A stretch of 12,526 bases of DNA. Origin: a virus (lineage: Duplodnaviria > Heunggongvirae > Uroviricota > Caudoviricetes). Numbering within the stretch: the first letter of the stretch is position 1; each line of letters begins with the position of its first letter. Below the pieces are notes generated by a model, which saw nothing but the letters and a program-made list of their open reading frames with translations, searched no databases and had not been told where the DNA came from. Both the position numbers and the translations under genes were made by a program. This document shows positions 1 through 12,526 of the stretch, piece after piece. The stretch is from the IMG/VR virus record IMGVR_UViG_2671180012_000008; one strand, written 5' to 3'.

Positions 1-38
1 TTAGTGTATGATGGTGTTTTTGAGGTGCTCCAGTGGCT
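1..38 (+). mobile_element. IS1 left-end fragment, just inside the left inverted repeat and running into the insA start
   Basis: The 38 nt TTAGTGTATGATGGTGTTTTTGAGGTGCTCCAGTGGCT match the IS1 left terminal region as I recall it, ending at the GTGGCT that opens insA. Cut by the N-run at 39-48. Confidence 0.7.
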
Positions 39-48
39 NNNNNNNNNN

Positions 49-2097
49 TCCGGTTGCAAAATGGAATTTCGCCGCAGCGGCCTGAATGGCTGTACCGCCT
101 GATGCGGATGCGCCGCCACCAACAGCCCCGCCAATGGCGCTGCCGATACTCCCGACAATCCCCACCATTGCCTGCTTAAGCAGAATTTCTGTCATCATGG
201 ACAGCACGGAACGGGTGAAGCTGCGCCAGTTCTGCTCACTGCCGGTCAGCATCGCTGCCATATTCTGTGCAATACCATCAAAGGTCTGCGTGGCTGCACT
301 TTTTACCTGCGACATACTGTCCGTGGCGCTCTCTTCCCACTCACTCCAGCCGGACTTCAGGCCTGCCATCCAGCTCCCGCGAAGCTGGTCTTCAGCCGCC
401 CAGGTCTTTTTCTGCTCTGACATGACGTTATTCAGCGCCAGCGGATTATCGCCATACTGTTCCTTCAGGCGCTGTTCCGTGGCTTCCCGTTCTGCCTGCC
501 GGTCAGTCAGCCCCCGGCTTTTCGCATCAATGGCGGCCCGTTTTGCCCGTTGCTGCTGTGCGAATTTATCCGCCTGCTGCGCCAGCGCGTTCAGGCGCTC
601 CTGATACGTAACCTTGTCGCCAAGTGCAGCCAGCTGGCGTTTGTACTCCAGCGTCTCATCTTTATGCGCCAGCAGGGATTTCTCCTGTGCAGACAGCTGG
701 CGACGTTGCGCCGCCTCCTCCAGTACCGCGAACTGACTCTCCGCCTTCCACAAATCCCGGCGCTGCTGGCTGATTTTCTCATTTGCTCCGGCATGCTTCT
801 CCAGCGTCCGGAGTTCTGCCTGAAGCGTCAGCAGGGCAGCATGAGCACTGTCTTCCTGACGATCGCCCGCAGACACCTTCACGCCGGACTGTTTCGGCTT
901 TTTCAGCGTCGCTTCATAATCCTTTTTCGCCGCCGCCATCAGCGTGTTGTAATCCGCCTGCAGGATTTTCCCGTCTTTCAGTGCCTTGTTCAGTTCTTCC
1001 TGACGGGCGGTATATTTCTCCAGCGGCGTCTGCAGCCGTTCGTAAGCCTTCTGCGCCTCTTCGGTATATTTCAGCTGTGACGCTTCAGTATCGCTCTGCT
1101 GCTGCGCATTTTTGTCCTGTTGAGTCTGCTGCTCAGCCTTCTTTCGGGCGGCTTCAAGCGCAAGACGGGCCTTTTCACGATCATCCCAGTAACGCGCCCG
1201 CGCTTCATCGTTAACAAAATAATCATCCTTGCGCAGATTCCAGATGTCGTCTGCTTTCTTAAACGCAGCCTCTGCCTTAATCAGCATCTCCTGCGCGGTA
1301 TCAGGACGACCAATATCCAGCACCGCATCCCACATGGATTTGAATGCCCGCGCAGTCCTGTCTGCCCAGGTCTCCAGCGTGCCCATGTTCTCTTTCAGGC
1401 GGCGGGTCTGGTCATCAAACCCTTTCGTTGCGGCCTCGTTCGCCGCCTGCAATGCCCCGGCTTCATCGCCGGAACGCTGCAACTGAGCAACATACGCAAT
1501 CTGCTCCGCCGTCACGTTATGGAACTGGCGTGCCATCGCCGTCAGCCCCGACGTCGGGTCTGTGGTCAGCTTCCCGAAGGCTTCTGCGACCTTGTCCACC
1601 TCCACGCCGGATGCAGAGGAGAAACGCGCCACACTCTGGCTGATGGACGCAATCTGAGCCTCACCGCTTACCCCCGCCTTAACCAGTGCGCTGAGTGACT
1701 CGCTGGTCTGGTTAAACGTCAGCCCTGCCGCCTGCCCGGCTCTGGACAGGACCAGCATACGATCTGCCGTCAGACCCGACTGATTACCGGAAAGGACCAG
1801 CGTTTTGTTGAAATCGGACAGGGTTGAGTTGCCCTGATACCAGGCATACGCCAGCGCACCGGTCGCCACCGCCAGCGAGGTGGCCCCGACCATCGGCAGG
1901 GTGATCGCACCGGCAAGCCCCCTGAACATGGGGATCATCCCGCCGAAGGAGTCCTTCACCTGACCACCCTGTTGCAGCAGGATCAGCCACGGACTCTGCC
2001 CGCCTGCAAGCTGCGTGGCCACGTCGGTGAACTGCGCAGGCAGCATACGCATGGCGGCTTTATACTGCCCGACGGAAATCCCCGCTTTCTGTGCAGC
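49..2097 (-). CDS. H: Lambda-like tail tape measure protein gpH, internal fragment truncated at both ends by N-runs
   Basis: The minus-strand translation runs AAQKAGISVGQYKAAMRMLPAQFTDVATQLAGGQSPWLILLQQGG ... GGTAIQAAAAKFHFATG with a long coiled-coil-like Q/A/K/E-rich middle, near-identical to lambda gpH as I recall it. The Met at 2052 reported by the ORF track is internal; the frame stays open up to the gap at 2098. Confidence 0.92.
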
Positions 2098-2107
2098 NNN
2101 NNNNNNN

Positions 2108-2239
2108 TCAGTCCGTCACCGACGGTGTGAAGGTGAAAGTGAGCCGTGTTCCTGACGGCGTTGCCGGATACAGCATATGGGGGCTGAAGCTGCCGACGCT
2201 GCGCCAGCGCCTGTTCCGCTGTGTGAGTATCCGTGAGAA
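2108..2239 (+). CDS. J: Lambda-like tail tip / host specificity protein J, central fragment (variant 1)
   Basis: Translation QSVTDGVKVKVSRVPDGVAGYSIWGLKLPTLRQRLFRCVSIRE matches the central part of lambda J. It overlaps in content with the next block, so it is a second copy rather than a continuation. Confidence 0.85.
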
Positions 2240-2249
2240 NNNNNNNNNN

Positions 2250-2666
2250 GAAAGTGAGCCGGGTTCCTGACGGCGTTGCCGAGTACAGCGTGTGGGGGCT
2301 GAAGCTGCCGACGCTGCGCCAGCGCCTGTTCCGCTGTGTGAGTATCCGTGAGAACGATGACGGCACGTATGCCATCACTGCCGTGCAGCATGTACCGGAG
2401 AAAGAAGCCATCGTGGATAACGGGGCGCACTTTGACGGCGACCAGAGCGGAACGGTAAACGGTGTCACGCCGCCAGCGGTGCAGCACCTGACCGCAGAAG
2501 TCACCGCAGACAGCGGGGAATACCAGGTGCTGGCGCGCTGGGACACGCCGAAGGTGGTGAAGGGCGTGAGTTTCCTGCTTCGCCTGACCGTGGCAGCGGA
2601 TGACGGCAGTGAGCGGCTGGTCAGCACGGCCCGGACGACGGAAACCACATACCGCTTCACGCAGCT
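2250..2666 (+). CDS. J: Lambda-like J, central fragment (variant 2)
   Basis: Translation KVSRVPDGVAEYSVWGLKLPTLRQRLFRCVSIRENDDGTYAITAVQHVPEKEAIVDNGAHFDGDQSGTVNGVTPPAVQHLTAEVTADSGEYQVLARWDTPKVVKGVSFLLRLTVAADDGSERLVSTARTTETTYRFTQ, near-identical to lambda J. Confidence 0.9.
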
Positions 2667-2676
2667 NNNNNNNNNN

Positions 2677-3109
<433 letters not shown>

Positions 3110-3119
3110 NNNNNNNNNN

Positions 3120-3725
3120 AAGCCGCCCCTGGTTTCCTTTTACAGCGAATAAATAATCACCGCCCTGTTTTTGTATCTTCTCTGCAATATCTTTCTGGCA
3201 TCCCATCGCATCAGTTGTGATGATTTTTCCTTTAATATCCAGCATGTTAAGAAGTTCAGGAATGGCTGTAATCTCATTAGATTTCTCATCCGTCTTGATC
3301 TGTCCGATGACCAGACTGTGCATTGTTGAGAACGCACTAATGACATGAATCGCTCCCCTGCGGCGACTCTTGTCATAAGAGTGCCGGAGCGTTTTTCCAT
3401 CAATTGCAATGACGTCTTTATCATCTGAAGAATGGCAGTCACGCATCCAGTTAATAAAGCACTCGTGAAATTTTGCAGGACTGATACAGGATACAACTCT
3501 GGCAATGGTATCGTGAACAGGAATACCATTTTCAAAATCACCATATTGCTTCAAAAAATCGAGATGTGTTTCCCCAAAATCCTCTATATCTTCCCAACCT
3601 TCTGCACCAGAAATAACGGCACAAATAGTCAACAGTAGAATATCCGATAATTTATGTTCCACATTCCAGGCTTGTCTGTAATCGGGGATAACAGAAATAT
3701 GTTCCATCAATTTTTTAAGTTCCAT
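3120..3725 (-). CDS. ISAs1-family (H-repeat-associated) transposase, N-terminal 202 codons, truncated by the gap at 3110-3119
   Basis: Translation [78 protein letters not shown] ... [15 protein letters not shown] matches the E. coli H-repeat/ISAs1 transposase family. ATG at 3725 is preceded by a strong SD (TAAGGAG, 6 nt spacer). Confidence 0.85.
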
Positions 3726-3770
3726 TTTGTTCTCCTTAATTATGTAAGGAGTATTTGATCCAAGGCAAGA

Positions 3771-3853
3771 TTACGAAAGCCCGCTCCCCGCAAGGACTGA
3801 CGCCAGATAGTTTCTGTCCATGGCTGCTTTTCGCATCTTACGTCTTAACCCTG
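3771..3853 (-). CDS. Probable C-terminal end of an ISAs1-family transposase (last 26 codons plus stop)
   Basis: Minus-strand frame reads GLRRKMRKAAMDRNYLASVLAGSGLS then TAA at 3771-3773, which matches the C-terminus I recall for H-repeat transposases. It lies only 45 nt upstream of the transposase start at 3725. The 5-prime side is cut by the gap at 3854-3863. Confidence 0.5.
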
Positions 3854-3863
3854 NNNNNNNNNN

Positions 3864-4152
3864 CAGTGACCCGGCACATACGGCAACCGCGCCCGGCGGA
3901 TTGAGTGCGAAAGCGCCTGCAATGACCCCGCTGATGCTGGACACCTCCACCCGTAAGCTGGTTGCGTGGGATGGCACCACCGACGGTGCTGCCGTTGGCA
4001 TTCTTGCGGTTGCTGCTGACCAGACCAGCACCACACTGACGTTCTACAAGTCCGGCACGTTCCGTTATGAGGATGTGCTCTGGCCGGAGGCTGCCAGCGA
4101 CGAGACGAAAAAACGGACCGCGTTTGCCGGAACGGCAATCAGCATCGTTTAA
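3864..4152 (+). CDS. D: Lambda-like head decoration protein gpD, C-terminal 95 codons (copy 1)
   Basis: Translation [95 protein letters not shown] then TAA at 4150-4152, matching lambda gpD. Confidence 0.92.
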
Positions 4153-4170
4153 CTTTACCCTTCATCACTA

Positions 4171-4194
4171 AAGGCCGCCTGTGCGGCTTTTTTT
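4171..4194 (+). terminator. Hairpin followed by a T-run in the D-E intergenic spacer (intrinsic-terminator-like)
   Basis: GCCGC (4174-4178), loop CTGT, GCGGC (4183-4187), then seven T at 4188-4194. Sits between the D stop and the E start. Confidence 0.5.
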
Positions 4195-4207
4195 ACGGGA
4201 TTTTTTT

Positions 4208-4216
4208 ATGTCGATG
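4208..4216 (+). CDS. E: First three codons of the major capsid protein gene E, cut by the gap
   Basis: ATGTCGATG lies 55 nt after the D stop, the same spacing and start as lambda E. Only 9 nt are present. Confidence 0.55.
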
Positions 4217-4226
4217 NNNNNNNNNN

Positions 4227-4766
4227 CGTAGTCAACATTCAGATAACGTGTTTCTTCACGTAATTCATTGCCGTCAACCGTTGGTCCCTGCAACTCTTCA
4301 CCGTAATGAGTAAACGATCCCACAGCTTCTGGTATCGCCTCCATTACTTCCTGTGCAATAACGCCAGCATAAGGCATCCCGTTTTCCCTGAGCGTGTAGG
4401 TGTATCCGTTCATTTTACGGATTGCTTTCGTCGCGTCGCTGATAACGAGAATATCGTCTTTAAGGTCGCGGTCTGATGACTGATTCAGCATTGTGCAATT
4501 AATAGCGCCATTTACATCAAACAACTGGCCTGCTGACGTTTTTGCGCATAAAACAGATACGCAGCAGACGTTCCAACCTCAAAAACGTTTTGTCGAGTAC
4601 TGGAACCCCACACCCTGACAGAAAACGGTAGTTCTGCATTACCTGAGTTCTGTAAAACAAAACGATTACCAGTCCCTGATTGCTTTGTAAGGGTTAAATC
4701 AACGGTTGAGTTAACCTCATCCTTGTTGATAGTGAGCGCCTGCGCTTTAGCCCCGTTAACAGCACC
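4227..4766 (-). CDS. Phage tail fibre C-terminal region with an intramolecular-chaperone (endosialidase-chaperone / peptidase S74-like) domain; reading frame interrupted at 4539-4543
   Basis: The upstream frame (4766 down to stop at 4512) reads GAVNGAKAQALTINKDEVNSTVDLTLTKQSGTGNRFVLQNSGNAELPFSVRVWGSSTRQNVFEVGTSAAYLFYAQK. The second frame (4524 down to 4227) reads FDVNGAINCTMLNQSSDRDLKDDILVISDATKAIRKMNGYTYTLRENGMPYAGVIAQEVMEAIPEAVGSFTHYGEELQGPTVDGNELREETRYLNVDY, with the SDRxLK..GxIAQE..PE pattern typical of auto-cleaving tail-fibre chaperone domains. Confidence 0.7.
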
Positions 4767-4776
4767 NNNNNNNNNN

Positions 4777-5127
4777 CTGCGCCGCTGACAACGGCACCTG
4801 ATACAGCCCTGTGGCCTCCAGATTATCCAGATAGAGATTCTGACCGTTACGCCACCAGTCATCCTCGCGATGAAAATCCGGCATCTCAATCCCCGCCAGA
4901 TGGTAAGCATCCCGGAACAGCGTGTAACAGTCCGTCACCCCGTGCTCAAAGCGCCGCCCGGAAAGATGTGGCACACAGCGGAACTTGTGAATCGCCCCCC
5001 GGCAAACCAGCCACCACGGCAAATCACTCTGCACCTGCAGCCGCCGGTCGGCCTCACTCAGCCATGGCAGACCACCGGGGTGGCTGTGGACCAGCGCCAC
5101 AATCTCACCCTGCATTTCTGCCTGCAG
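4777..5127 (-). CDS. K: Lambda-like tail assembly protein gpK (JAB/MPN plus NlpC/P60-type), internal fragment
   Basis: Translation LQAEMQGEIVALVHSHPGGLPWLSEADRRLQVQSDLPWWLVCRGAIHKFRCVPHLSGRRFEHGVTDCYTLFRDAYHLAGIEMPDFHREDDWWRNGQNLYLDNLEATGLYQVPLSAAQ matches lambda K. The HSHPGG motif is the JAB metal-binding signature. Confidence 0.88.
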
Positions 5128-5288
5128 NNNNNNNNNNAGGGATGTTACCTCGCGCCCGACCCGGTAGCCGTAAGGGATAAGCCGAGGGCACCGCGCAGCG
5201 GCGATTTTGTTCGCCAGAGCCCGGGGGTGCAGGGGGCGGCGGCGATTGGCCGCCCCCTGCGCGCTCCTTGCGCCAGTGNNNNNNNNNN

Positions 5289-5423
5289 AAAACAAAAGGC
5301 TCAGTCGAAAGACTGGGCCTTTTGTTTTATCTGTTGTTTGTCGGTGAACGCTCTCCTGAGTAGGACAAATCCGCCGGGAGCGGATTTGAACGTTGCGAAG
5401 CAACGGCCCGGAGGGTGGCGGGC
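5289..5423 (+). other. Distal (post-5S) region of an rRNA operon, including the T1-type terminator
   Basis: Sequence AAAACAAAAGGCTCAGTCGAAAGACTGGGCCTTTTGTTTTATCTGTTGTTTGTCGGTGAACGCTCTCCTGAGTAGGACAAATCCGCCGGGAGCGGATTTGAACGTTGCGAAGCAACGGCCCGGAGGGTGGCGGGC is the E. coli rrn T1 terminator region (familiar from rrnB T1 in expression vectors), with two substitutions in the stem. Confidence 0.85.
5294..5329 (+). terminator. rrn T1 intrinsic terminator hairpin
   Basis: Stem AAAAGGCTCAGTC (5294-5306), loop GAAA, stem GACTGGGCCTTTT (5311-5323), followed by a GTTTTAT U-tract. Confidence 0.8.
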
Positions 5424-5433
5424 NNNNNNNNNN

Positions 5434-6320
5434 TCCAGACTCATAGCGGGATAAAAGCTGACCGTTCGGATCAACCGCCAGTGCATCCCTGTAATGCTCC
5501 CGAACCCTCTGAGCTTTTTCGCTGACACTCATCGCTGTGAATTCTGCTTCACTCATCGTGTCGAAAGGACTGGCGTTATGTGGCTTCAAAGCCTCAAGAA
5601 TTGCCTTCAGGGTGGATTCCTCTCCGTAATGGGCAAGCGCATCATTCCAGTCACCAAAAACCGGTGGCAGCACAATGTCACACTGACACGCTTTTGCAGC
5701 AGCTTCAGCCCTGTTCTGGCCTGAACTATTCAGATCTCGGTCCGCTGCAATAATTAGCTGATACCCCGGATACTTGTTATGGGCAACGCTGGCCAGAGAA
5801 AGAAAGTTGACCGCCGAAAATGCCACCATGACGGCTTCTCCTGTCAGATGATGAATGGTAAGCGCCGTGGCGTAGCCTTCCGCAATCCACATCCTTCTTA
5901 CTGAACTCCCGCTCCCTTCTATCAGATGATAGGCCTCCTTAACCTGACCCCCTTTAAGAAAACACTTGCTACCATTGCCACTGATAAGCTGAATATTCAC
6001 CAGCACCCCGTCAGTGTTATAGAGCGGGACGATCAAATCACCGGGGCGGAACATCACCCCACCGGTTTTATGATCTGAAGTCAGCTCATGGCAAATATGC
6101 TCCGGGAAACCTTTATGTGTAAGATAAGTGTTTCCGGCAGATTCACGCGAGGCTTGCAGCAGTCGCGCGGCAAGTGCTGCCGCTGCATCTTTCCCGCTAT
6201 CGGCATCGGCGGTTAACGTCTTGACTTCGGAATTAGCTATAGAGAGACCATGTGTCAGTCCATGTATCCTGTCAGCTGCTTCACTGATATCCACATTCAG
6301 TGCCCTGGTGACAAGCGCTA
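5434..6320 (-). CDS. Toprim-domain primase-like protein (P4-type / plasmid-type primase family), internal fragment cut at both ends
   Basis: Minus-strand translation contains WIAEGYATALTIHHLTGEAVMVAFSAVNFLSLASVAHNKYPGYQLIIAADRDLNSSGQNRAEAAAKACQCDIVLPPVFGDWNDAL, i.e. the conserved Glu (EGxxTA) and DxD motifs of a toprim fold. The GTG at 6294 used by the track is probably not the real start because the frame is open up to the gap. Confidence 0.6.
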
Positions 6321-6330
6321 NNNNNNNNNN

Positions 6331-6474
6331 TAGTGACCCGGCTCATACCGCAACCGCGCCCGGCGGATTGAGTGCGAAAGCGCCTGCAATGACCCCGCTG
6401 ATGCTGGACACATCCACCCGTAAGCTGGTTGCGTGGGATGGCACCACCGACGGTGCTGCCGTTGGCATTCTTGC
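6331..6474 (+). CDS. D: Lambda-like gpD fragment (copy 2)
   Basis: Translation [47 protein letters not shown] is identical in protein to copy 1 at 3864-4007; the nucleotide differences are all at third codon positions. Confidence 0.9.
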
Positions 6475-6484
6475 NNNNNNNNNN

Positions 6485-6590
6485 CTTATCGTTGGCGTCC
6501 TTCCACTCTTTCGAAAACTCATCCAGTTTGCTGGCGTTATCCTCCGTCAGGTCGACTTTTTCCAGCAGCTCCTTGCCGAGATGGGATTCG
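6485..6590 (-). CDS. J: Lambda-like J C-terminal-half fragment (copy 2)
   Basis: Translation [35 protein letters not shown], a close variant of the J segment encoded at about 2720-2830. Confidence 0.8.
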
Positions 6591-6600
6591 NNNNNNNNNN

Positions 6601-6711
6601 TCATTCATCGTATTCTGCGCACCATTCTGTTGCCCCTTCCGTGCTGACAAGCGCCAGCGGCAGGCCGCGATGGTCGCAGTGGTACAGGTGGATTTTTCGC
6701 GCCGGCGTGTA
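6601..6711 (-). CDS. Rhs core (conserved C-proximal core region), short fragment
   Basis: Translation [36 protein letters not shown] matches the conserved Rhs core of E. coli Rhs proteins. Confidence 0.8.
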
Positions 6712-6721
6712 NNNNNNNNNN

Positions 6722-6830
6722 AAATCAGCCACAGCGCCTCCCGTTATTGCATTCTGGCCAGGCCGCGCTCTGTCATTTCGGCTGCCACACCGGCAGAGAC
6801 ACGAAACGCCGTTCCCGGCAGCACAAATGC
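6722..6830 (-). CDS. FI: Lambda-like FI C-terminus (6744-6830) followed by the start of FII (GTG at 6730-6732)
   Basis: Translation AFVLPGTAFRVSAGVAAEMTERGLARMQ then TAA, 11 nt spacer containing GGGAGG, then GTG GCT GAT TT (M-A-D-F) as in FII. The 11 nt spacing equals the lambda FI-FII gap. Confidence 0.75.
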
Positions 6831-6840
6831 NNNNNNNNNN

Positions 6841-7119
6841 GGGCCAGGTGGTAAGCACTTCCTGCTCAATCTGTTTAACGGCTTCATTCATGGACGGCAT
6901 CTGCGTCTTCTGCGGATGGTTATGCCACAGGGACATCGCCACCAGAAACGCGCCGGTTCTGATGGCGTCTTCCACAGTAAACTTCCGGTTGCTGTCTGAC
7001 TCCGCCTGTTCTGCCTGCCGTTTCATCAGGGCGAGATGCTCAATACGCTGCAGGGCTGACAGTTCAGAAAGCGTGACGGTCACACCGTTATGTTCAAATG
7101 ATTCGGTTTTCAGGAACAT
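6841..7119 (-). CDS. G: Lambda-like tail assembly chaperone gpG, N-terminal 93 codons (copy A)
   Basis: Translation MFLKTESFEHNGVTVTLSELSALQRIEHLALMKRQAEQAESDSNRKFTVEDAIRTGAFLVAMSLWHNHPQKTQMPSMNEAVKQIEQEVLTTWP. ATG at 7119 with SD GGAGAG, 15 nt after the V stop as in lambda. The G-T frameshift site is not within this fragment. Confidence 0.9.
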
Positions 7120-7134
7120 CGCTGACTCTCCGGA

Positions 7135-7521
7135 TTAACTGGCGGTGACGTTGATTTCTGCAACCGCAGCAAGTTCACCATTACCGGATACGACCGGAAT
7201 GTTGACCTTGCCTGCAGCAACACCTTTCACGGTGATGGTCATACCACTGACCGACACGGTGGCTTTTGTTTTATCCGCAGACACCGCACGGAAGCTCTTG
7301 TCGGTTGCGCCCTCCGGCTGGAATGCCACGGTCAGTGTGGTGCTCTGCCCTTTCACTACGGAAGCACTGGCGGGTGTCACCGTCATGCCGGTTGTCGCCG
7401 TCACCGTGCTGCGATCTTCTGCCATCGACGGACGTCCCACATTGGTGACCTTCACCGTGCGGGTGATCACTTCCTTCGCCGTCACCGCCTTACCGATACT
7501 GCTGACCCAGCCACGGAACAC
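7135..7521 (-). CDS. V: Lambda-like major tail protein gpV, C-terminal part including the Ig-like (Big_2) domain (copy A)
   Basis: Translation [127 protein letters not shown] then stop at 7135-7137. Confidence 0.9.
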
Positions 7522-7531
7522 NNNNNNNNNN

Positions 7532-7856
7532 TACGGTGAAGGTCACCAATGTGGGCCGTCCGTCAATGGCAGAAGATCGCAGTACGGTGACGGCGGCAAC
7601 CGGTATGACCGTGACGCCTGCCAGCTCCTCGGTGGTGAAAGGGCAGAGCACCACGCTGACCGTGGCATTCCAGCCGGAGGGCGCAACTGACAAGAGCTTC
7701 CGTGCGGTGTCAGCGGATAAAACAAAAGCCACCGTGTCGGTCAGTGGTATAACCATCACCGTGAAAGGCGTTGCTGCAGGTAAGGTCAACATTCCGGTTG
7801 TATCCGGTAATGGTGAACTTGCTGCGGTTGCAGAAATCACTGTCACCGACAGTTAA
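7532..7856 (+). CDS. V: Lambda-like gpV C-terminal part (copy B, opposite orientation to copy A)
   Basis: Translation [105 protein letters not shown] then TAA at 7854-7856. Confidence 0.9.
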
Positions 7857-7871
7857 TCCGGAGAGTCAGCG

Positions 7872-7969
7872 ATGTTCCTGAAAACCGAATCATTTGAACA
7901 TAACGGCGTGACCGTCACGCTTTCTGAACTGTCAGCCCTGCAGCGTATTGAGCATCTCGCCCTGATGAA
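7872..7969 (+). CDS. G: Lambda-like gpG N-terminal 32 codons (copy B)
   Basis: ATG at 7872, 15 nt after the V stop; translation MFLKTESFEHNGVTVTLSELSALQRIEHLALM. Confidence 0.85.
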
Positions 7970-7980
7970 NNNNNNNNNNC

Positions 7981-8139
7981 GAGCTGCTGCACCATATTCC
8001 TGAACAACTGAGCAAACGAGAGAGGTATACCGACAAATGGCAGCGACGCACACACTCCCTCTGGCGTCACCGGGCATGGCGCGCATCTGCCTTTACGGGG
8101 ATTTACAACGATTTGGCCGCCGCATCGACCTTCGAGTGA
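7981..8139 (+). CDS. K: Lambda-like gpK C-terminal 52 codons
   Basis: Translation ELLHHIPEQLSKRERYTDKWQRRTHSLWRHRAWRASAFTGIYNDLAAASTFE then TGA at 8137-8139. It overlaps the I start by 103 nt in another frame, exactly as in lambda. Confidence 0.85.
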   Translation, partial: ELLHHIPEQLSKRERYTDKWQRRTHSLWRHRAWRASAFTGIYNDLAAASTFE

Positions 8140-8458
8140 AAACGGGGTCCGAAGCCATTCGGGCGCTGGCCACACAGCTCCCGGCGTTTCGTCAGAAACT
8201 GAGCGACGGCTGGTATCAGGTACGGATTGCCGGGCAGGATGTCAGCACGTCCGGATTAACGGCGCAGTTACATGAGACTCTGCCTGATGGCGCTGTGATT
8301 CATATTGTTCCCAGAGTCGCCGGGGCCAAGTCAGGTGGCGTATTCCAGATTGTCCTGGGGGCTGCCGCCATTGCCGGATCATTCTTTACCGCCGGGGCCA
8401 CCCTTGCAGCATGGGGGGCAGCCATTGGGGCCGGTGGTATGACCGGCATCCTGTTTTC
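8037..8458 (+). CDS. I: Lambda-like tail assembly protein gpI, N-terminal 140 codons
   Basis: Translation MAATHTLPLASPGMARICLYGDLQRFGRRIDLRVKTGSEAIRALATQLPAFRQKLSDGWYQVRIAGQDVSTSGLTAQLHETLPDGAVIHIVPRVAGAKSGGVFQIVLGAAAIAGSFFTAGATLAAWGAAIGAGGMTGILF, near-identical to lambda I. Confidence 0.9.
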
Positions 8459-8468
8459 NNNNNNNNNN

Positions 8469-8576
8469 TCCGCCCGGTGTGTCCATATCGAGCAGAATGC
8501 CGTCCACCATCGGGTCGCTGGCAGCCTGTTGCAGACGGGCGATAATGCCGTTGTAACCGGTCATCCCCGAGTACGG
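8469..8576 (-). CDS. C: Lambda-like capsid assembly protease gpC (S49 / ClpP-like peptidase), internal fragment
   Basis: Translation PYSGMTGYNGIIARLQQAASDPMVDGILLDMDTPGG, matching lambda C around the S49 peptidase fold. Confidence 0.8.
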
Positions 8577-8586
8577 NNNNNNNNNN

Positions 8587-8697
8587 TGCCAGCGTCGCGA
8601 GTGCCTCCTGGGCAGTCAGGCTGTCGCCGGACACCGCATCCGTCAGGCGGCTGATCCCAAGCTGGCCTGCAAGCGCACAAAAGAAAACCCGCGCATA
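8587..8697 (-). CDS. C: Lambda-like gpC, more N-terminal fragment
   Basis: Translation YARVFFCALAGQLGISRLTDAVSGDSLTAQEALATLA. It is in the same orientation and order as the previous block, consistent with one gene having a missing internal piece under the 10 N. Confidence 0.75.
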
Positions 8698-8886
8698 NNN
8701 NNNNNNNGATAACTTTCCCGTTATTACCGTTGATTTCCGTGCCAGTGGAATCCTTGCCGTCAACGGTGGTTTTGCCGCTGTTATTCGCNNNNNNNNNNAG
8801 CCAAAGCGCGCAAACTGGAACAGCAACAGGCTAATGCGGAACCAGAAGAACAGGTTGATCCGCGCAAAGCCGCCGTNNNNNNNNNN

Positions 8887-8964
8887 CTTGAGCGCCAGTA
8901 GCGCAGCTTCCTCGGCAACGGCGGCAGGAAATTCCGCGAAGGCCGCAAAAACGTCTGAGACGAA
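8887..8964 (+). CDS. Possible side tail fibre (Stf-like) N-terminal low-complexity repeat region, short fragment
   Basis: Translation LSASSAASSATAAGNSAKAAKTSET resembles the Ala/Ser-rich repeat (..SSAGRAASSATAAENSARAAKTSETN..) of the lambda side tail fibre. Only 26 codons are present. Confidence 0.45.
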
Positions 8965-8974
8965 NNNNNNNNNN

Positions 8975-9137
8975 CCAAAAACAGAGAAAGGAAACGACAG
9001 AGGCCCAAAAGCTCGTTTTCAGCACCTGTCGTTTCCTTTCTTTTCAGGGGGTATTTTAAATAAAAACATTAAGTTACGACGAAGAAGAACGGAAATGCCT
9101 TAAACCGGAAAATTTTCATAAATAGCGAAAACCCGCG
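8975..9137 (-). promoter_or_regulatory. cosB / Nu1 leader region of a lambda-like cos site (terminase small-subunit binding region); Nu1 itself lies beyond the gap
   Basis: The reverse complement reads CTCGCGGGTTTTCGCTATTTATGAAAATTTTCCGGTTTAAGGCATTTCCGTTCTTCTTCGTCGTAACTTAATGTTTTTATTTAAAATACC..., near-identical to the first 180 nt or so of the lambda genome. Confidence 0.8.
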
Positions 9138-9149
9138 AGGTCGCCGCCC
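9138..9149 (-). other. cosN 12-nt cohesive-end sequence
   Basis: Plus-strand AGGTCGCCGCCC is the reverse complement of the lambda cohesive end GGGCGGCGACCT, followed by CGTAACCTGTCGG, the reverse complement of the lambda right end. Confidence 0.85.
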
Positions 9150-9348
9150 CGTAACCTGTCGGATCGCCGGAAAGGACCCGCAAAATGATAATAATTATCA
9201 TCTGCATGTCACAACGTGCATCTACGCAATCAAACCACGTCAAATAATCAATTATGACGCAGATATCGTATTAATTGATCTGCATCAACTTAACGTAAAA
9301 ACAACTTCAGACAATACAAATCAGCGACACTGAATACGGGACAACCTC

Positions 9349-9582
9349 ATGTCAACGAAGAACAGAACCCGCAGAACAACAACCCGCAACATCCGCTTTC
9401 CTAACCAAATGATTGAACAAATTAACATCGCTCTTGATCAAAAAGGGTCCGGGAATTTCTCAGCCTGGGTCATTGAAGCCTGCCGCCGGAGACTGTGCTC
9501 AGAAAAAAGAGTTTCTCCTGAAGCAAACAAAGAAAAGAGTGACATTACTGAATTGCTCAGAAAACAGATCAGACCAGATTGA
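9349..9582 (+). CDS. Small basic ribbon-helix-helix-like protein (77 aa), function unknown
   Basis: Complete ORF ATG 9349 to TGA 9582. N-terminus MSTKNRTRRTTTRNIRFPNQMIEQINIALDQKGSGNFSAWVIEACRRRL has the Arc/MetJ/CopG pattern of a basic tail, beta strand (NIRFP), then two helices. The SD is weak. Confidence 0.6.
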   Translation: MSTKNRTRRTTTRNIRFPNQMIEQINIALDQKGSGNFSAWVIEACRRRLCSEKRVSPEANKEKSDITELLRKQIRPD

Positions 9583-9638
9583 AGCAATTTAGATAATCGT
9601 GCAGACTACGCCCCTCATATCACATGGAAGGTACTACA

Positions 9639-10049
9639 ATGGCTCAGGTTGCCATTTTTAAACAAATATTCGATAAAGTGCGAAAAGATTTAAACTGTGA
9701 ATTGTTTTATTCTGAACTAAAACGTCACAACGTCTCACATTATATTTACTATCTAGCCACAGATAATATTCACATCGTGTTAGAAAACGATAACACTGTG
9801 TTAATAAAAGGACTTAAAAAGGTTGTAAATGTTAAATTCTCAAGAAACACGCATCTTATAGAAACGTCCTATGATAGGTTGAAATCAAGAGAAATCACAT
9901 TTCAGCAATACAGGGAAAATCTTGCTAAAGCAGGAGTTTTCCGGTGGGTTACAAATATCCACGAACAAAAAAGATATTACTATACCTTTGATAATTCATT
10001 ACTCTTTACTGAAAACATACAGAGCACATCACAAATGTTTCCACACTAA
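9639..10049 (+). CDS. DUF1398-family protein (lambdoid putative envelope protein, YbcV-like)
   Basis: ATG at 9639 with SD GGAAGG 7 nt upstream (the track start at 9624 is less likely); TAA at 10047-10049. The C-terminal [42 protein letters not shown] fits the DUF1398 signature I recall. AT-rich coding sequence. Confidence 0.75.
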
Positions 10050-10317
10050 ACCATAACGTCCGGTTTCTTCTACCCCTGCACCGGACTGGCTGACATGAAG
10101 AGCAACCCCGCGTTCAGTTGACGCGTTAATAACCCGGTGTGCATCGTTTTTGATTATTCCCGCACACTCACGCAGAAGGAATTCCCCGTCGGGCTACGGT
10201 CATGGTTAATGCGGGAATACGGCGACGATACAGCGCATGATGTGTCAGGCTTGAATACCTTTATCCGTTAAAAGGGATATCAGTTAAGTTATCCCGTGTA
10301 GGGTATAAACCATTATC

Positions 10318-10344
10318 AAAGCCACTCTGTAGGGAGTGGCTTTT
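10318..10344 (+). terminator. Hairpin with flanking A and T runs (possible bidirectional intrinsic terminator) in the gene-free gap
   Basis: AAA GCCACTC TGTAGG GAGTGGC TTTT: a 7 bp perfect stem (10321-10327 and 10334-10340) with a 6 nt loop, flanked by AAA and TTTT. Confidence 0.4.
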
Positions 10345-10552
10345 GTAATGACAATAAAAAGCCCCGCGAATACGAGGCTAAATCCTGGTATTTGTAATGA
10401 CTGGCTCTTATCTCAACGCAGCCCCTTACCGCGCGCAAGATGCTCAATATCAAGCATCAGCAATGAGATATTTAATCTGGATTCACTCCAGAAGTGATCA
10501 CCACCCTGTCTACAGAGCCAGATGTGAAGGATGATGAGTAAAATTATCGCTA

Positions 10553-10694
10553 TCATCGAAGGCATTGCGTCCTGATATATTCCTGAAGCGTTCTCAGTGC
10601 TGTCTGGTCTCTGATGATTCCGTCCCGGATACCGAGAACGTTTCGTCCAGCAACTGGAGAGAGTTCGACGGTGGCATCATTGCCCATGCCGGAG
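10553..10694 (-). CDS. Rz: Rz-like i-spanin, C-terminal 46 codons
   Basis: Translation SGMGNDATVELSPVAGRNVLGIRDGIIRDQTALRTLQEYIRTQCLR then TGA; aligns in pattern with the lambda Rz C-terminus (..SGVDNAASPRLADTAERDYFTLRERLITMQKQLEGTQKYINEQCR), including the terminal QC-R. Confidence 0.65.
10594..10694 (-). CDS. Rz1: Embedded Rz1-like o-spanin, C-terminal part, in the +1 frame of Rz
   Basis: The alternative frame reads PAWAMMPPSNSLQLLDETFSVSGTESSETRQH then TGA at 10594-10596; the PAWxMxPP stretch resembles the proline-rich lambda Rz1 (PPPAWIMQPPPDW). Confidence 0.5.
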
Positions 10695-10704
10695 NNNNNN
10701 NNNN

Positions 10705-10741
10705 TGCCGATCTGACGTATGTCATTACCTATGAAATGTGA
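10705..10741 (+). CDS. U: Lambda-like tail terminator gpU, last 11 codons
   Basis: Translation [11 protein letters not shown] then TGA at 10739-10741, matching the gpU C-terminus; 7 nt before the V start as in lambda. Confidence 0.8.
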
Positions 10742-10748
10742 GGACGAT

Positions 10749-11038
10749 ATGCCTGTACCAAATCCAGCAATACCGGTGAAAGGTGCCGGAACCACCCTGT
10801 GGGTTTATAACGGGAGCGGCGACCCTTATGCGAACCCGCTTTCAGACGTTGACTGGTCGCGTCTGGCAAAAGTTAAAGACCTGACGCCCGGCGAACTGAC
10901 CGCTGAGTCCTATGACGACAGCTATCTCGATGATGAAGATGCAGACTGGACTGCGACCGGGCAGGGGCAGAAATCTGCCGGAGATACCAGCTTCACGCTG
11001 GCGTGGATGCCCGGAGAGCAGGGGCAGCAGGCGCTGCT
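10749..11038 (+). CDS. V: Lambda-like major tail protein gpV, N-terminal 96 codons
   Basis: Translation [96 protein letters not shown]. The true start is ATG 10749 (SD GAGGA), not the track start at 10719. Confidence 0.92.
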
Positions 11039-11048
11039 NNNNNNNNNN

Positions 11049-11162
11049 CACGCCGCATCCGACATCTAACGCCCGAGCCGGTTGCCTGATGCGACGCTGA
11101 CGCGTCTTATCAGGCCTACACCGCTGTGAAGTGCTCCACCCCGTAGGTCGGATAAGGCGGTT
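11049..11162. repeat. BIME-type cluster of REP (palindromic unit) elements in alternating orientation
   Basis: A complete REP GCCTGATGCGACGCTGACGCGTCTTATCAGGCCTAC at 11084-11119 is flanked by REP-like halves in inverse orientation (ACGCCGCATCCGACAT and CCCCGTAGGTCGGATAAGGCGGTT). This is a typical E. coli chromosomal intergenic repeat. Confidence 0.75.
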
Positions 11163-11172
11163 NNNNNNNNNN

Positions 11173-11427
11173 GACCGTGACCAGTTCAGCCGTATCCTGA
11201 ATCACGGTATCCGGCTGCGCTGATACCACCTCATTTTCATGCCCGGTCAGCACATTTTCCCGGCTGAGAGGGGTGTCCTGACCGGCAGTTTCATCCGTGT
11301 CATCAAGCTCTTCTTCCAGCTCTGCCACACGAAGCGCCAGTTCTTCTTTCGTTCCCGTCAAACTGACATCGCGGTTCAGTTGCTCACCCAGCTCCTGAAG
11401 ACGGGCAATCAGTTCATCTTTCGTCAT
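11173..11427 (-). CDS. FI: Lambda-like DNA-packaging protein gpFI, N-terminal 85 codons
   Basis: Translation MTKDELIARLQELGEQLNRDVSLTGTKEELALRVAELEEELDDTDETAGQDTPLSRENVLTGHENEVVSAQPDTVIQDTAELVTV. ATG at 11427 with SD GGAGGAG, 41 nt after the E stop as in lambda. Confidence 0.85.
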
Positions 11428-11448
11428 GAACTCCTCCACAGAGAGAAA

Positions 11449-11466
11449 ATGGCCCCGAAGGGCCAT
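11449..11466 (-). terminator. GC hairpin in the E-FI intergenic spacer (terminator-like; minus-strand reading is followed by TTTTCTCTCT)
   Basis: ATGGCCC, loop CGAA/TTCG, GGGCCAT: perfect 7 bp stem. It lies between the E stop (11469-11471) and the FI SD. Confidence 0.4.
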
Positions 11467-11468
11467 GA

Positions 11469-11556
11469 TTACGCCAGTTGAACGGACACGAACTCATCAG
11501 GGTCAGCCAGCAGCATCAGCGGTGCTGACTGAATCATGGTGAACTCACGCGCCGGA
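11469..11556 (-). CDS. E: Lambda-like major capsid protein gpE, last 28 codons
   Basis: Translation PAREFTMIQSAPLMLLADPDEFVSVQLA then TAA at 11469-11471. Confidence 0.75.
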
Positions 11557-11774
11557 NNNNNNNNNNAATTCACCACAGCGATGTGGTAACTTCGGTGAGA
11601 TTGTGAAAGTTTGCACTCATCGGGGAAGGGTGAGAACCTTCGACTAAGGTTCGATTCGAGCGAAAGCGAGAGAACGTTGCCACAGGCAACGGCCCGAAGG
11701 GTGAGGAGCGAAGCGACGAATAATCCTTCCCCCACCACCATCTCAAGCATTACCTCGAAATTTGAATTACCCCT

Positions 11775-11835
<61 letters not shown>

Positions 11836-11845
11836 NNNNNNNNNN

Positions 11846-11945
11846 CCGGATAAGCTGCTGCAGCTGATGCGGGTTCTCTTCATTCAGCAGGTTGCCCCAT
11901 TCATCATATTCTGCGCACCACGCTGTTGCCCCTTCCGTGCTGATG
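11846..11945 (-). CDS. Rhs core fragment (second copy, longer into the core)
   Basis: Translation [33 protein letters not shown] matches the conserved Rhs core shortly upstream of the core/toxin-tip boundary. Confidence 0.85.
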
Positions 11946-11955
11946 NNNNNNNNNN

Positions 11956-12266
11956 GCCGAAAGTAAAACGCAGACGGTCGATGTTTGCCGACGTGATGGC
12001 GCGGGTGATCGGCGTGTCATATTTCACTTCCGTACCCAGCACCGTCTCGGAGCCGGAGGATTCAAATCCCTCCGGCGGAGTCTGCTCCTGCTCACCAGCC
12101 CGGAACACCACCGTGACACCGGTGATGTTGGTATTCCCCTCACTGTCCAGCACCGGCGTACTGTTCAGCAGCACGCTTTTTAATCCATCCACCGGACCTT
12201 CAACCGGCCCTTCACTGATGGCGTCTATCACGCTCAGCATCTGGGATGATTTCAGGTTGTCCTTCG
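11956..12266 (-). CDS. J: Lambda-like J, N-terminal-region fragment
   Basis: Translation KDNLKSSQMLSVIDAISEGPVEGPVDGLKSVLLNSTPVLDSEGNTNITGVTVVFRAGEQEQTPPEGFESSGSETVLGTEVKYDTPITRAITSANIDRLRFTFG matches the lambda J N-terminal region. Confidence 0.88.
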
Positions 12267-12276
12267 NNNNNNNNNN

Positions 12277-12396
12277 GTCGGCCTGGAATTTATCCAGCGC
12301 ATCGTGCAGCGGTTGTGGGAACTCATAGTTACCGGTGTAGGTCACGCCGAAAGTCGGCACCACGCCGATGGTGTTTTCGTCACAGGCTTCAATCAT
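12277..12396 (-). CDS. gadA/gadB: Glutamate decarboxylase (GadA/GadB) internal fragment, copy 1
   Basis: Translation [40 protein letters not shown] matches the internal segment of E. coli GadA/GadB (..[24 protein letters not shown]..). The Met is internal. Confidence 0.88.
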
Positions 12397-12406
12397 NNNN
12401 NNNNNN

Positions 12407-12526
12407 ATCGGCCTGGAATTTATCCAGCGCATCGTGCAGCGGTTGTGGGAACTCATAGTTACCAGTGTAGGTCACGCCGAAAGTCGGCACCACGCCGATG
12501 GTGTTTTCGTCACAGGCTTCAATCAT
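12407..12526 (-). CDS. gadA/gadB: Glutamate decarboxylase (GadA/GadB) internal fragment, copy 2
   Basis: Same 40 codons as copy 1 with two synonymous third-position differences (ACC/ACT and GAC/GAT), consistent with the two gad paralogues. Confidence 0.88.

Follow-up and report, generated by a model that had tools for sequence, protein, structure and literature searches.

The region from cos to the lysis genes in a lambda-like Escherichia coli prophage, with an empty cargo slot and a conserved non-coding element

The region between cos and the lysis cassette in the viral DNA analysed here (the window, 12,526 nucleotides) can be assigned with high confidence to a standard accessory interval of lambda-like E. 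coli prophages. Two small genes that both read against the late operon, one of the DUF3950 and one of the DUF1398 family, lie beyond cosN and are followed by a 503-bp gap; this gap consists of four conserved parts (a 180-bp element, a boundary block, the terminator of the lysis cassette and a 50-aa ORF) and is a mosaic of conserved pieces, neither empty nor a decayed gene. The module is ordinary, being laid out as nohA-ynfO-ydfO in the Qin prophage of K-12 and as the right end of lambda; thousands of E. coli genomes, and lambda itself, carry annotations of both ORFs in this layout. It lies in one contiguous block (8975-10694), flanked by runs of 10 N at 8965-8974 and 10695-10704, which is matched in 5003 of 5426 complete E. 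coli genomes; the same layout is found, annotated, in CUPF06 (98.4% identity) and in phage Kati. A preliminary description had observed two ORFs, no ORF of at least 60 aa in the gap, no bor and a hairpin, all of which is confirmed. The features are as follows.

9138-9149: cosN cohesive-end sequence, AGGTCGCCGCCC, the reverse complement of lambda 1-12.
9349-9582, plus strand: YlcI/YnfO family protein (DUF3950), 77 aa, basic (Pfam PF13132, E = 4.9e-21; NF041551; phrog_949; PGAP name).
9563-9579, plus strand: palindrome like the PdhR box, AACAGATCAGACCAGAT, matched once in the window.
9624-10049, plus strand: YdfO/YbcV-type DUF1398 protein of 141 aa (136 aa if begun at 9639, the ATG chosen by PGAP) (PF07166, E = 1.4e-46; PGAP).
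10058-10237, minus strand: conserved non-coding element of about 180 bp, a candidate structured RNA (lambda 46868-47041).
10197-10223, plus strand: relic of the promoter annotated upstream of bor in HK630 (feature of the HK630 record).
10238-10353, no strand: conserved boundary block on the cos side of the cargo slot, found downstream of every cargo type (78 viral contigs).
10353-10354, no strand: unoccupied cargo (moron) insertion point, between two putative back-to-back terminators.
10360-10379, minus strand: Rho-independent terminator that closes the lysis cassette, AGCCUCGUAUUCGCGGGGCU then UUUUUAUU (terminator scan).
10413-10565, minus strand: conserved 50-aa ORF with a hydrophobic N-terminus beginning MPSMIAIILLIILHIWLC (phrog_11822, E = 3.9e-38; PGAP WP_032318905).
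10553-10694, minus strand: C-terminal part of the spanin Rz, cut by the N run at 10695 (Pfam Phage_lysis, E = 6.9e-6; annotated lysis protein).

The plus strand of the window corresponds to the minus strand of lambda, window 9150 aligning with lambda 48502; window 9150-9511 matches lambda 48502-48141 at 94.5% identity, and homology to lambda stops at window 10237 (lambda 46868). The right end of lambda (Rz - bor - lambdap78 - lambdap79 - cos) and the DLP12 prophage (borD-ybcV-ybcW-ylcI-nohD) carry, in the same order, homologues of cos, of the DUF3950 core, of the DUF1398 gene (89% aa identity to lambda p78) and of the 180-bp element. They differ from the window by an additional 613 bp with ybcW/p79 between the two ORFs, by another C-terminus of the DUF3950 protein, and by a bor cassette in place of window 10238-10552 (hairpin block, terminator and 50-aa ORF). 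Both bor and p79 are absent from the window in the lambda alignment, and the equivalence to the bor interval of lambda that had been proposed from position holds. The nohA-ynfO-ydfO region of Qin has the same order, strands and sizes (nohA/Nu1, a 234-nt ynfO-type and a 411-nt ydfO-type gene), is 92% identical over window 8975-10088, and conserves the PdhR-box-like site; however, of the 180-bp element, which is complete in the window, it retains just the first 30 nt or so, and downstream of ydfO it carries gnsB-ynfN-ynfR-ynfQ-cspI on the late strand where the window has an empty slot. The preliminary description had set its reading against one in which both ORFs are the ordinary lambda right-arm ORFs and show no variation between prophages; the first part of this is the case, whereas the second is not, the region varying between prophages.

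The 77-aa ORF (net charge about +8) is a member of the DUF3950 family, scoring 74.8 bits with PF13132 (cut-off 25) and 35.7 bits with the NCBIfam model NF041551, YlcI_YnfO_N (cut-off 30), and the 136-aa ORF is a member of DUF1398, scoring 157.9 bits with PF07166 (cut-off 22); both families had been named correctly from the sequence. Homologues of the DUF3950 ORF cover it to 100% at 95-96% identity, and its mosaic junction with lambda falls after residue 54. The core, IRFPNQMIEQINIALDQKGSGNFSAWVIEACRRRL, is similar to the ribbon-helix-helix motif, and an AF2 monomer model, at a low pLDDT of 62, has an extended N-terminus and helices at residues 19-32 and 37-55, compatible with this fold; a ribbon-helix-helix-like nature is thus plausible from motif and helix pattern, and the protein would probably be a small, dimeric DNA-binding protein of this type. 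No significant similarity to a recognised ribbon-helix-helix family (Arc/MetJ/CopG) was found: the Pfam scan gave none of these families at E <= 1, the DUF3950 profile had no match among PDB sequences at E <= 10, and Foldseek with the AF2 model had none either; in hhalign against Arc, the strand and helix A come out in register, yet with a probability of 1.3%. The literature on DUF3950, YlcI and YnfO offers expression data only, no function, and the same is true of DUF1398, YdfO and YbcV.

The DUF1398 ORF is a close relative of YdfO, aligning to PDB 2HH8 over residues 1-140 with E = 2.2e-73; an AF2 model from a shallow alignment reached a pLDDT of 48. A genome-wide search for DUF1398 across species returned mostly lambda DNA contamination. 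The PdhR-box-like palindrome sits in the 3' end of the DUF3950 ORF, ahead of the DUF1398 gene, with one match in the window and none in 200 shuffles; an identical site occurs in K-12 ynfO, and the palindrome corresponds to the PdhR SELEX hit AAcaGGTcagACCAgaT (PMC7660256). In K-12, a PdhR site lies at ynfO/ydfO and ybcV is PdhR-dependent (PMC7660256), and ydfO is induced by stress (PMC4077768). A consensus scan found no promoter for the two plus-strand genes. They would be non-essential, host-regulated accessory genes, expressed from the prophage. The accessory, host-responsive behaviour of the K-12 homologues (ydfO, ybcV and the PdhR site), together with viable lambda recombinants that carry ybcV::Kan, was counted as support for the reading of the region as a standard accessory interval.

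The two genes could also be seen as a functional pair, for example a ribbon-helix-helix antitoxin with its toxin, or a defence module, given that they share a strand, are spaced by 41-56 nt, and have the small basic ribbon-helix-helix-like protein first, and that the DUF3950 ORF has a weak match (E = 0.007) to a HicB-like PHROG. However, in lambda and DLP12 about 600 bp with ybcW on the opposite strand come between them, in many contigs DUF3950 adjoins the 180-bp element without DUF1398, and PADLOC gives no match; replacement of ybcV is moreover tolerated, ybcV::Kan having been transferred into viable lambda recombinants (PMC3945230). A type II toxin-antitoxin system combines obligate linkage with a toxic second gene; linkage is not obligate here. 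A functional pair of either kind is highly improbable.

Downstream of these accessory genes, no ORF of at least 60 aa overlaps 10050-10552, but the gap is not gene-free, as had been described, since it contains the conserved 50-aa ORF; because this takes up 10413-10565, about 363 bp (10050-10412) are non-coding. The start of the 50-aa ORF and the stop of Rz overlap by 13 nt. Counterparts of the ORF are Sf6 gp65 and epsilon34 gp67 (98% identical to the latter), and both PGAP and the annotations of phages epsilon34 and mEp460 include it. Its variable sites fall 7/2/11 on the three codon positions, which with 20 sites (p ~0.05) is weak evidence of coding; the ORF would be of the membrane type and coupled to Rz. 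The other small ORFs of the gap (44, 45 and 53 aa) had no match in Pfam, PHROG or PADLOC, and the 44-aa ORF at 10137-10271 was rejected as a gene because it lacks codon-position bias (3/3/3) and its start is lost in one variant.

The first of the non-coding parts, the 180-bp element, has so far been unannotated. In 71 unique copies its conservation boundaries are sharp at 10058 and 10238, and its position is constant, between Rz and packaging genes of four types, with unrelated flanks on both sides; copies are present in lambda, in DLP12, in Stx phages and in roughly two of every three complete E. coli genomes (3588 genomes). On the late transcript it comes just after the lysis cassette and before the packaging genes. 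It shows no coding signal, having neither an open frame nor 3-base periodicity, and Rfam holds no family for it. Minus-strand ORFs annotated over it (ArgO145 gp69 and mEp460_059) have stops in the window and are not conserved; the label of ArgO145 gp69, 'Rz-like spanin', is in error. The element also contains an inverted repeat, TATTCCCGC...GCGGGAATA, a candidate DUF3950 site.

In the predicted fold, a stem some 17 bp long is built from two long-range helices, and the loop of a terminal stem-loop reads GGAAGAAA. Pairing is kept in 98.4% of cells on the late-transcript strand vs 81.1% on the other (RNAalifold, pair counts), for a structure predicted from the same alignment that was used for scoring and from related sequences; slid controls are 34-59% paired, and shuffles reach 96.4 +/- 0.2, with 0 of 500 attaining 98.4%. 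The alifold energy is -27.7 kcal/mol on the late strand vs -14.7 on the other. Six pairs have double changes, while most of the support comes from one-sided, G-U-compatible changes. The element probably folds as part of the late transcript. It is conceivable, at somewhat less than an even chance, that it is a structured RNA acting in cis on that transcript, so far overlooked and common to lambda, DLP12 and Shiga-toxin phages. One possibility is that it may act as an RNase III-type processing or stability (retroregulation) site, uncoupling the lysis and morphogenesis messages, by analogy with the sib/RNase III hairpin of lambda; as judged from the predicted structure, both would have a long imperfect stem that immediately follows a gene block in a transcript made by read-through. 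The likeness is one of predicted structure only, as there is no sequence similarity between the two and no Rfam match.

The element may equally lack any RNA function and be conserved either because it provides a linker of shared homology where modules meet near cos, a place at which lambdoid phages and defective prophages recombine very frequently, or through a role at the level of DNA, such as that of a bor upstream region, a reading that is credible if short of probable. Lambda and DLP12 frequently recombine across R-Rz-cos-nu1, an exchange that cos stimulates (PMC3945230), identity between window and lambda is no higher in the element than in the adjoining DUF1398 gene (87.7% over 9566-10237), covariation is mostly one-sided as noted, and the HK630 record has a promoter annotated inside the element. 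Against this reading stand the sharp boundaries with unrelated flanks across four packaging modules, the strand asymmetry in pairing and energy, and the promoter hexamers, which are conserved only in lambda/933W-type copies. At the promoter site (10197-10223), HK630 and ArgO145 have TGGACA-N15-TACAAT; both hexamers are degraded in the window because CGGTCA...TACGGC replaces them, and a promoter scan found no promoter-like site there.

Beyond the element lies the boundary block, within which the hairpin AAAGCCACTC-TGTAGG-GAGTGGCTTTT spans 10318-10344 in its core and 10311-10350 when extended. The hairpin that had been noted here is real, folding at -23.4 kcal/mol (z = -6.9) on the plus and at -20.5 kcal/mol (z = -5.6) on the minus strand. 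With just 3-4 U after the stem, it was not called by the terminator scan; it looks like a bidirectional terminator, and would probably end transcripts of the ynfO/ydfO type that arrive on one side as well as those of cargo that arrive on the opposite side. The second structure, at 10379-10360 on the minus strand, folds at -13.4 kcal/mol and has an 8-bp stem followed by UUUUUAUU, as in an intrinsic terminator; a Rho-independent terminator is annotated at the homologous site in the epsilon34 record, and the structure qualifies as an intrinsic terminator, here that of the lysis genes. Where the transcripts run and stop is inferred.

A small RNA had also been suggested for the gap, and the hairpin could mark the end of a small regulatory RNA that is transcribed independently from a promoter of its own: the hairpin is strong, a short U run accompanies it on the plus strand, the relic of the annotated promoter lies about 95-120 nt upstream, and the segment 10225-10350 folds at z = -4.2. 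However, this z-score is owed solely to the hairpin, 10238-10317 being unstructured (z = -0.3 and -1.0); the relic promoter lacks the final T of the -10 hexamer and part of the -35, and a scan found no sigma-70-like site in the gap. An Rfam 15 scan of 8975-10694 at E <= 1 gave chance-level matches only, the best (mir-578, STnc560 and AbsR28) scoring 18-24 bits, below the gathering thresholds of 50-98, with E = 0.16-0.42. No Hfq-bound sRNA in the table of Tree et al. lies at this site in the two Sakai prophages Sp4 and Sp5. Among other catalogued candidates, the Pas sRNAs of prophages lie near Q and holin and the EcOnc08/21 peaks of Sakai Sp4 downstream of Q, in both cases not in the gap. An sRNA ending at the hairpin is very unlikely, the hairpin behaving like one member of a back-to-back pair of terminators. 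A conserved RNA-like element does exist within the first 190 bp of the gap, a part to which the preliminary description paid no attention.

Between these two putative terminators, the junction 10353|10354 forms a recurrent cargo slot, which is empty in the window. In 79 related viral contigs, this junction holds 143-1577 bp of varied cargo in 66 and 0 bp in 13, so that the preliminary idea of a moron hotspot was right; the cargo of other phages includes Rha, KilA-N, Tad2-like and other genes, and numerous E. coli prophages, as well as phage PhiR70_1, have a Rha-family cassette of 670 bp inserted exactly at this point. The uninterrupted allele spanning 10238-10552 is found in 1442 E. coli genomes.

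Morons are reportedly a concept that Juhala et al. defined in 2000 for HK97 and HK022. The junction behaves as a site for morons of this type (for example the P22-like Rha or KilA-N cassettes downstream of Rz), related phages having self-contained cassettes here between upstream and downstream terminators, with a shared leader of 150-190 bp. A moron, an autonomous cassette of promoter, gene and terminator, is an extra gene between sequences that adjoin each other in related phages; unlike the occupied genomes, the window has no cassette and represents the empty state. The gap had also been thought to hold a degraded moron, and a decayed bor or Rha gene would fit its place, which holds bor in lambda and Rha in many prophages. 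However, tblastn with lambda Bor against the whole window found no homologue in the gap (best E = 0.7), bearing out the reported absence of bor; the boundaries of the Rha cassette are exact, with no cassette bases left in the window, and the junction is clean, recurring at zero length in the 13 independent viral contigs and in the spanning allele of the E. coli genomes. Decay of a former moron is exceedingly improbable.

As first framed, the finding is of limited importance, the two ORFs and the layout being widely annotated, and the gap, explained piece by piece, is not worth pursuing as a decayed gene or a hairpin sRNA. In other phages the slot at 10353|10354 accommodates the regulators Rha and KilA-N as well as a Tad2-like gene of the anti-defence type, and it is therefore an address for mining accessory genes. 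Should the 180-bp element prove to function as an RNA, the late operon of the best-studied phage, and that of Shiga-toxin phages, would gain a regulatory feature.

The window is a patchwork of fragments linked by ten-N runs, within which 8975-10694 is a single contiguous piece. Apart from the interval between the DUF1398 gene and Rz, it carries the following features:

Features of the contiguous block (coordinates; strand where assigned; identity)
9138-9149; lambda cohesive end (the window + strand is equivalent to the lambda minus strand)
9349-9582; +; ORF of 77 aa with a net charge of about +8, DUF3950
9624-10049; +; ORF of 141 aa (136 aa from the ATG at 9639, the PGAP start), DUF1398
10553-10694; -; C-terminal part of Rz (Pfam Phage_lysis)

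The family assignments of the preliminary description are correct, as Pfam recovers both DUF3950 (E = 4.9e-21) and DUF1398 (E = 1.4e-46). The module is real but ordinary, being already annotated and extremely common: of 5426 complete E. coli genomes 5003 match the 1720-bp block, 841 of these along 80% or more of it, and the best match, in strain CUPF06 (98.4% identity), is annotated alike (nohD, YlcI/YnfO, DUF1398, hypothetical protein of 50 aa, lysis protein). Phage Kati has the same arrangement, the Qin prophage of E. coli K-12 has nohA-ynfO-ydfO with the same gene sizes, and in DLP12, also of K-12, the order is borD-ybcV-ybcW-ylcI-nohD. Lambda 48502-48141 aligns with window 9150-9511 (94.5% identity) and lambda 47527-46868 with window 9566-10237 (87.7%); lambda differs in having 613 bp more between the two ORFs, holding lambdap79/ybcW, and a bor cassette in place of window 10238-10552. 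Both ORFs are thus ordinary lambda right-arm ORFs, one half of what the preliminary description had named as counting against it; the other half, an absence of variation between prophages, does not hold, as prophages do differ in this region. Bor had rightly been placed at the equivalent position in lambda and rightly called missing here: tblastn finds no counterpart of lambda Bor anywhere in the window (best E = 0.7).

Between cos and the Nu1 start, a BLAST self-match reveals a 63-nt inverted repeat (8982-9044), probably part of the cosB region; a weak Rfam match to mir-578 at these positions arises from this repeat and is spurious. Across the window (1-12526), pieces of lambda-like head and tail genes recur in both orientations; reading of translations suggests, among others, gpD-like pieces (3820-4152 and about 6330-6480), Ig-like ORFs (7135-7521 on the - strand, 7536-7856 on the + strand) and an ISAs1/H-repeat-type transposase-like ORF (2979-3725, - strand).

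The DUF3950 protein, YlcI/YnfO in NCBIfam, is one of a small family, which forms 112 clusters among 1.8 billion representatives when clustered at 50% identity and has the conserved core +xIRFPxxLIExIxxxL...NFSAWVIEAC+xKL. Its likeliest activity is predicted to be DNA binding of the ribbon-helix-helix (RHH) type, a prediction we favor on balance. The strand and first helix of the core are in register with Arc, in a match below significance; in the AF2 model the N-terminus is extended and two helices are placed as expected for an RHH; and a HicB-like PHROG is matched weakly (E = 0.007). No significant RHH likeness emerges from the Pfam scan, the profile search against PDB sequences, or Foldseek. 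Beyond Escherichia and close relatives, DUF3950 matches are mostly lambda DNA contamination. Matches of DUF1398 or DUF3950 in unrelated taxa (Staphylococcus, Bacillus, Kitasatospora, Flavobacterium and assorted MAGs; loci L093-L127, proteins P0021-P0120 and P0227-P0345) come from contigs some 3.5 kb long or from the ends of contigs, in lambda right-end DNA that is often frameshifted; they look like sequencing-control contamination, not real distribution.

The DUF1398 protein shares about 85% identity with E. coli YdfO (NMR structure PDB 2HH8). For the K-12 homologues the literature offers expression data only, no function: stress from an ionic liquid brings strong induction of ydfO, whose overexpression reportedly increases resistance to oxidative stress (PMC4077768); in a pdhR mutant, ybcV and ybcW mRNA are down about tenfold, and SELEX with PdhR placed a site at ynfO/ydfO (PMC7660256). 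The counterpart of this site in the window is the palindrome AACAGATCAGACCAGAT (9563-9579), at the 3' end of the DUF3950 ORF and just upstream of the DUF1398 gene; this candidate PdhR site suggests host metabolic control of the latter. Lambda recombinants carrying a ybcV::Kan allele have been made, and those tested were reportedly active (PMC3945230); ybcV is therefore dispensable for lytic growth. The two genes do not form an obligate pair: in lambda and DLP12 they are separated by ybcW, many phages have DUF3950 without DUF1398, and PADLOC returns no match.

The gap between the DUF1398 gene and Rz (10050-10552) is a mosaic of conserved pieces:

Pieces of the gap, from Rz towards cos (coordinates; strand where assigned; identity)
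10413-10565; -; 50-aa ORF, annotated by PGAP, its ATG preceded by AGGA and overlapping the Rz stop by 13 nt
10379-10360; -; canonical intrinsic terminator (terminator scan), followed by UUUUUAUU
10353-10354; junction between the terminator and the hairpin block
10353-10238; conserved block with a strong hairpin
10237-10058; conserved 180-bp element, adjoining the DUF1398 stop codon

As the preliminary description had it, an ORF scan finds none of 60 aa or more overlapping the gap, and a hairpin lies at 10318-10344. This hairpin is strong, folding at -23.4 kcal/mol (z = -6.9) when read on the + strand and at -20.5 kcal/mol on the - strand. The claim that the gap is gene-free nevertheless does not hold: the 50-aa ORF belongs to phrog_11822 and corresponds to gp67 of Salmonella phage epsilon34 (98% identity), recorded there as similar to the Sf6 gene 65 protein. 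Its variable sites (7/2/11 by codon position, over 24 distinct nucleotide versions) lend weak support to its being coding. In epsilon34, the site homologous to 10379-10360 is annotated as a Rho-independent terminator. Of the two contents proposed for the gap, a small RNA finds no support at the hairpin, and a degraded moron is rejected, as no bor or Rha remnant is present.

The idea of a moron hotspot is upheld. Among 80 IMG/VR contigs encoding the 50-aa ORF, 79 also have the hairpin block; the two neighbors, terminator and block, directly adjoin (0 bp) in 13 of the 79 and are separated by 143-1577 bp of cargo in 66. In phage PhiR70_1, as in many prophages of E. coli, 10353 and 10354 exactly flank a cassette of 670 bp whose Rha-family gene encodes 174 aa, with bases neither lost nor duplicated at the cassette ends.

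Cargo between 10353 and 10354 in other phages includes (loci L010-L089)
Rha (Phage_pRha + ORF11CD3)
KilA-N proteins
Tad2-like (Thoeris anti-defence 2-like) protein
Sf6 gene-66-like protein
T5orf172/MUG113 protein
DUF551
two unknowns

Cassettes with different cargo genes begin with a shared stretch of 150-190 bp, which fits a common leader or promoter; this would make the cassettes look like classical morons between upstream and downstream terminators. Of 5426 E. coli genomes, 1442 have 10238-10552 as an uninterrupted allele, and the window thus represents the common unoccupied state of the slot.

The region may be seen as optional units, each exchangeable independently of the others, that are stacked around two landmarks which stay fixed, the lysis-cassette end and cos. 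Genes on the + strand would be accessory and read against the late operon; the lysogen probably expresses them under the control of the host, with transcripts ending at the 10318-10344 hairpin. On the late (-) strand, following the established model of lambda late transcription, polymerase without Q would stop at the 10379-10360 terminator, and Q-modified polymerase would pass terminator, hairpin, 180-nt element and cos into Nu1. The back-to-back terminators would insulate cargo placed between them, which is perhaps why this slot is favored.

The 180-bp element, which lies within the gap of the preliminary description and outside its reasoning, has sharp ends: when 71 distinct copies are aligned together with the 30 bp adjoining each side, column conservation rises from about 0.45 to 0.9 at 10058 and falls from 0.94 to 0.32 at 10238. 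It corresponds to lambda 46868-47041 and recurs in DLP12 and Stx phages. Of 5426 E. coli genomes 3588 have it, as do 432 phage records, most of them for Escherichia, Stx-converting and Shigella phages; annotations practically never include it, and it has no Rfam match. A covariance model adds diverged copies in E. albertii and related Escherichia, and two shortened versions with the 3' part only. Its position is constant: the lysis cassette precedes it, with the Rz stop often only 13-20 bp away, and beyond it come packaging genes of at least four kinds (Nu1-type, 933W-type terS, HNH plus terS, another terS). Inserted accessory genes are, towards Rz, bor, Rha, KilA-N plus gp50, or the 50-aa ORF and, towards cos, DUF1398 (adjoining the element) and DUF3950. 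It does not behave as coding: at most 26 of 69 copies keep any one frame open, variable sites lack 3-base periodicity, and indels in the middle part are not multiples of three. ORFs annotated over it in some phage records (an 81-aa 'Rz-like spanin' or hypothetical protein, as in ArgO145 gp69, L008 2370-2615) are not conserved and are probably annotation artefacts.

The structure predicted by RNAalifold for the late strand combines two long-range helices in coaxial arrangement (7 and 10 bp) with small internal hairpins and a terminal stem-loop of 7 bp, whose GGAAGAAA loop is conserved. Scored on the alignment from which this structure was derived, standard pairs fill 98.4% of 2156 sequence-by-pair cells (shuffles 96.4 +/- 0.2, 0 of 500 reaching 98.4%; slid controls 34-59%), in sequences that are related and whose changes are mostly one-sided. 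Double changes occur at six pairs; at one pair of the terminal stem, for instance, 10 sequences have UA in place of GC. The same pairs are 81.1% paired on the other strand; polymorphisms are almost all C/U opposite G or A/G opposite U, tolerated on the late strand only. The consensus folds at -27.7 kcal/mol on the late strand against -14.7 on the other, whose best structure lacks the long helices, and parts of the element folded as single sequences do no better than shuffles (z = -0.6 to -1.5). From this modeling, we tentatively regard a functional RNA as possible. Alternatively, the element could be a shared linker without RNA function, kept by recombination around cos, which is intense (PMC3945230). 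Helix H2, an inverted repeat TATTCCCGC...GCGGGAATA (10154-10165 and 10210-10220), shows a compensatory C-to-G/G-to-C change in HK630; it overlaps the promoter annotated in the HK630 record inside the element, upstream of bor (TGGACA-N15-TACAAT), and so could also be a protein-binding site on DNA. The promoter hexamers read CGGTCA and TACGGC in the window and most other copies, and the element is therefore not conserved as the HK630 promoter. This unannotated 180-bp element common to lambda and Stx phages is the only item of the region that might repay work.
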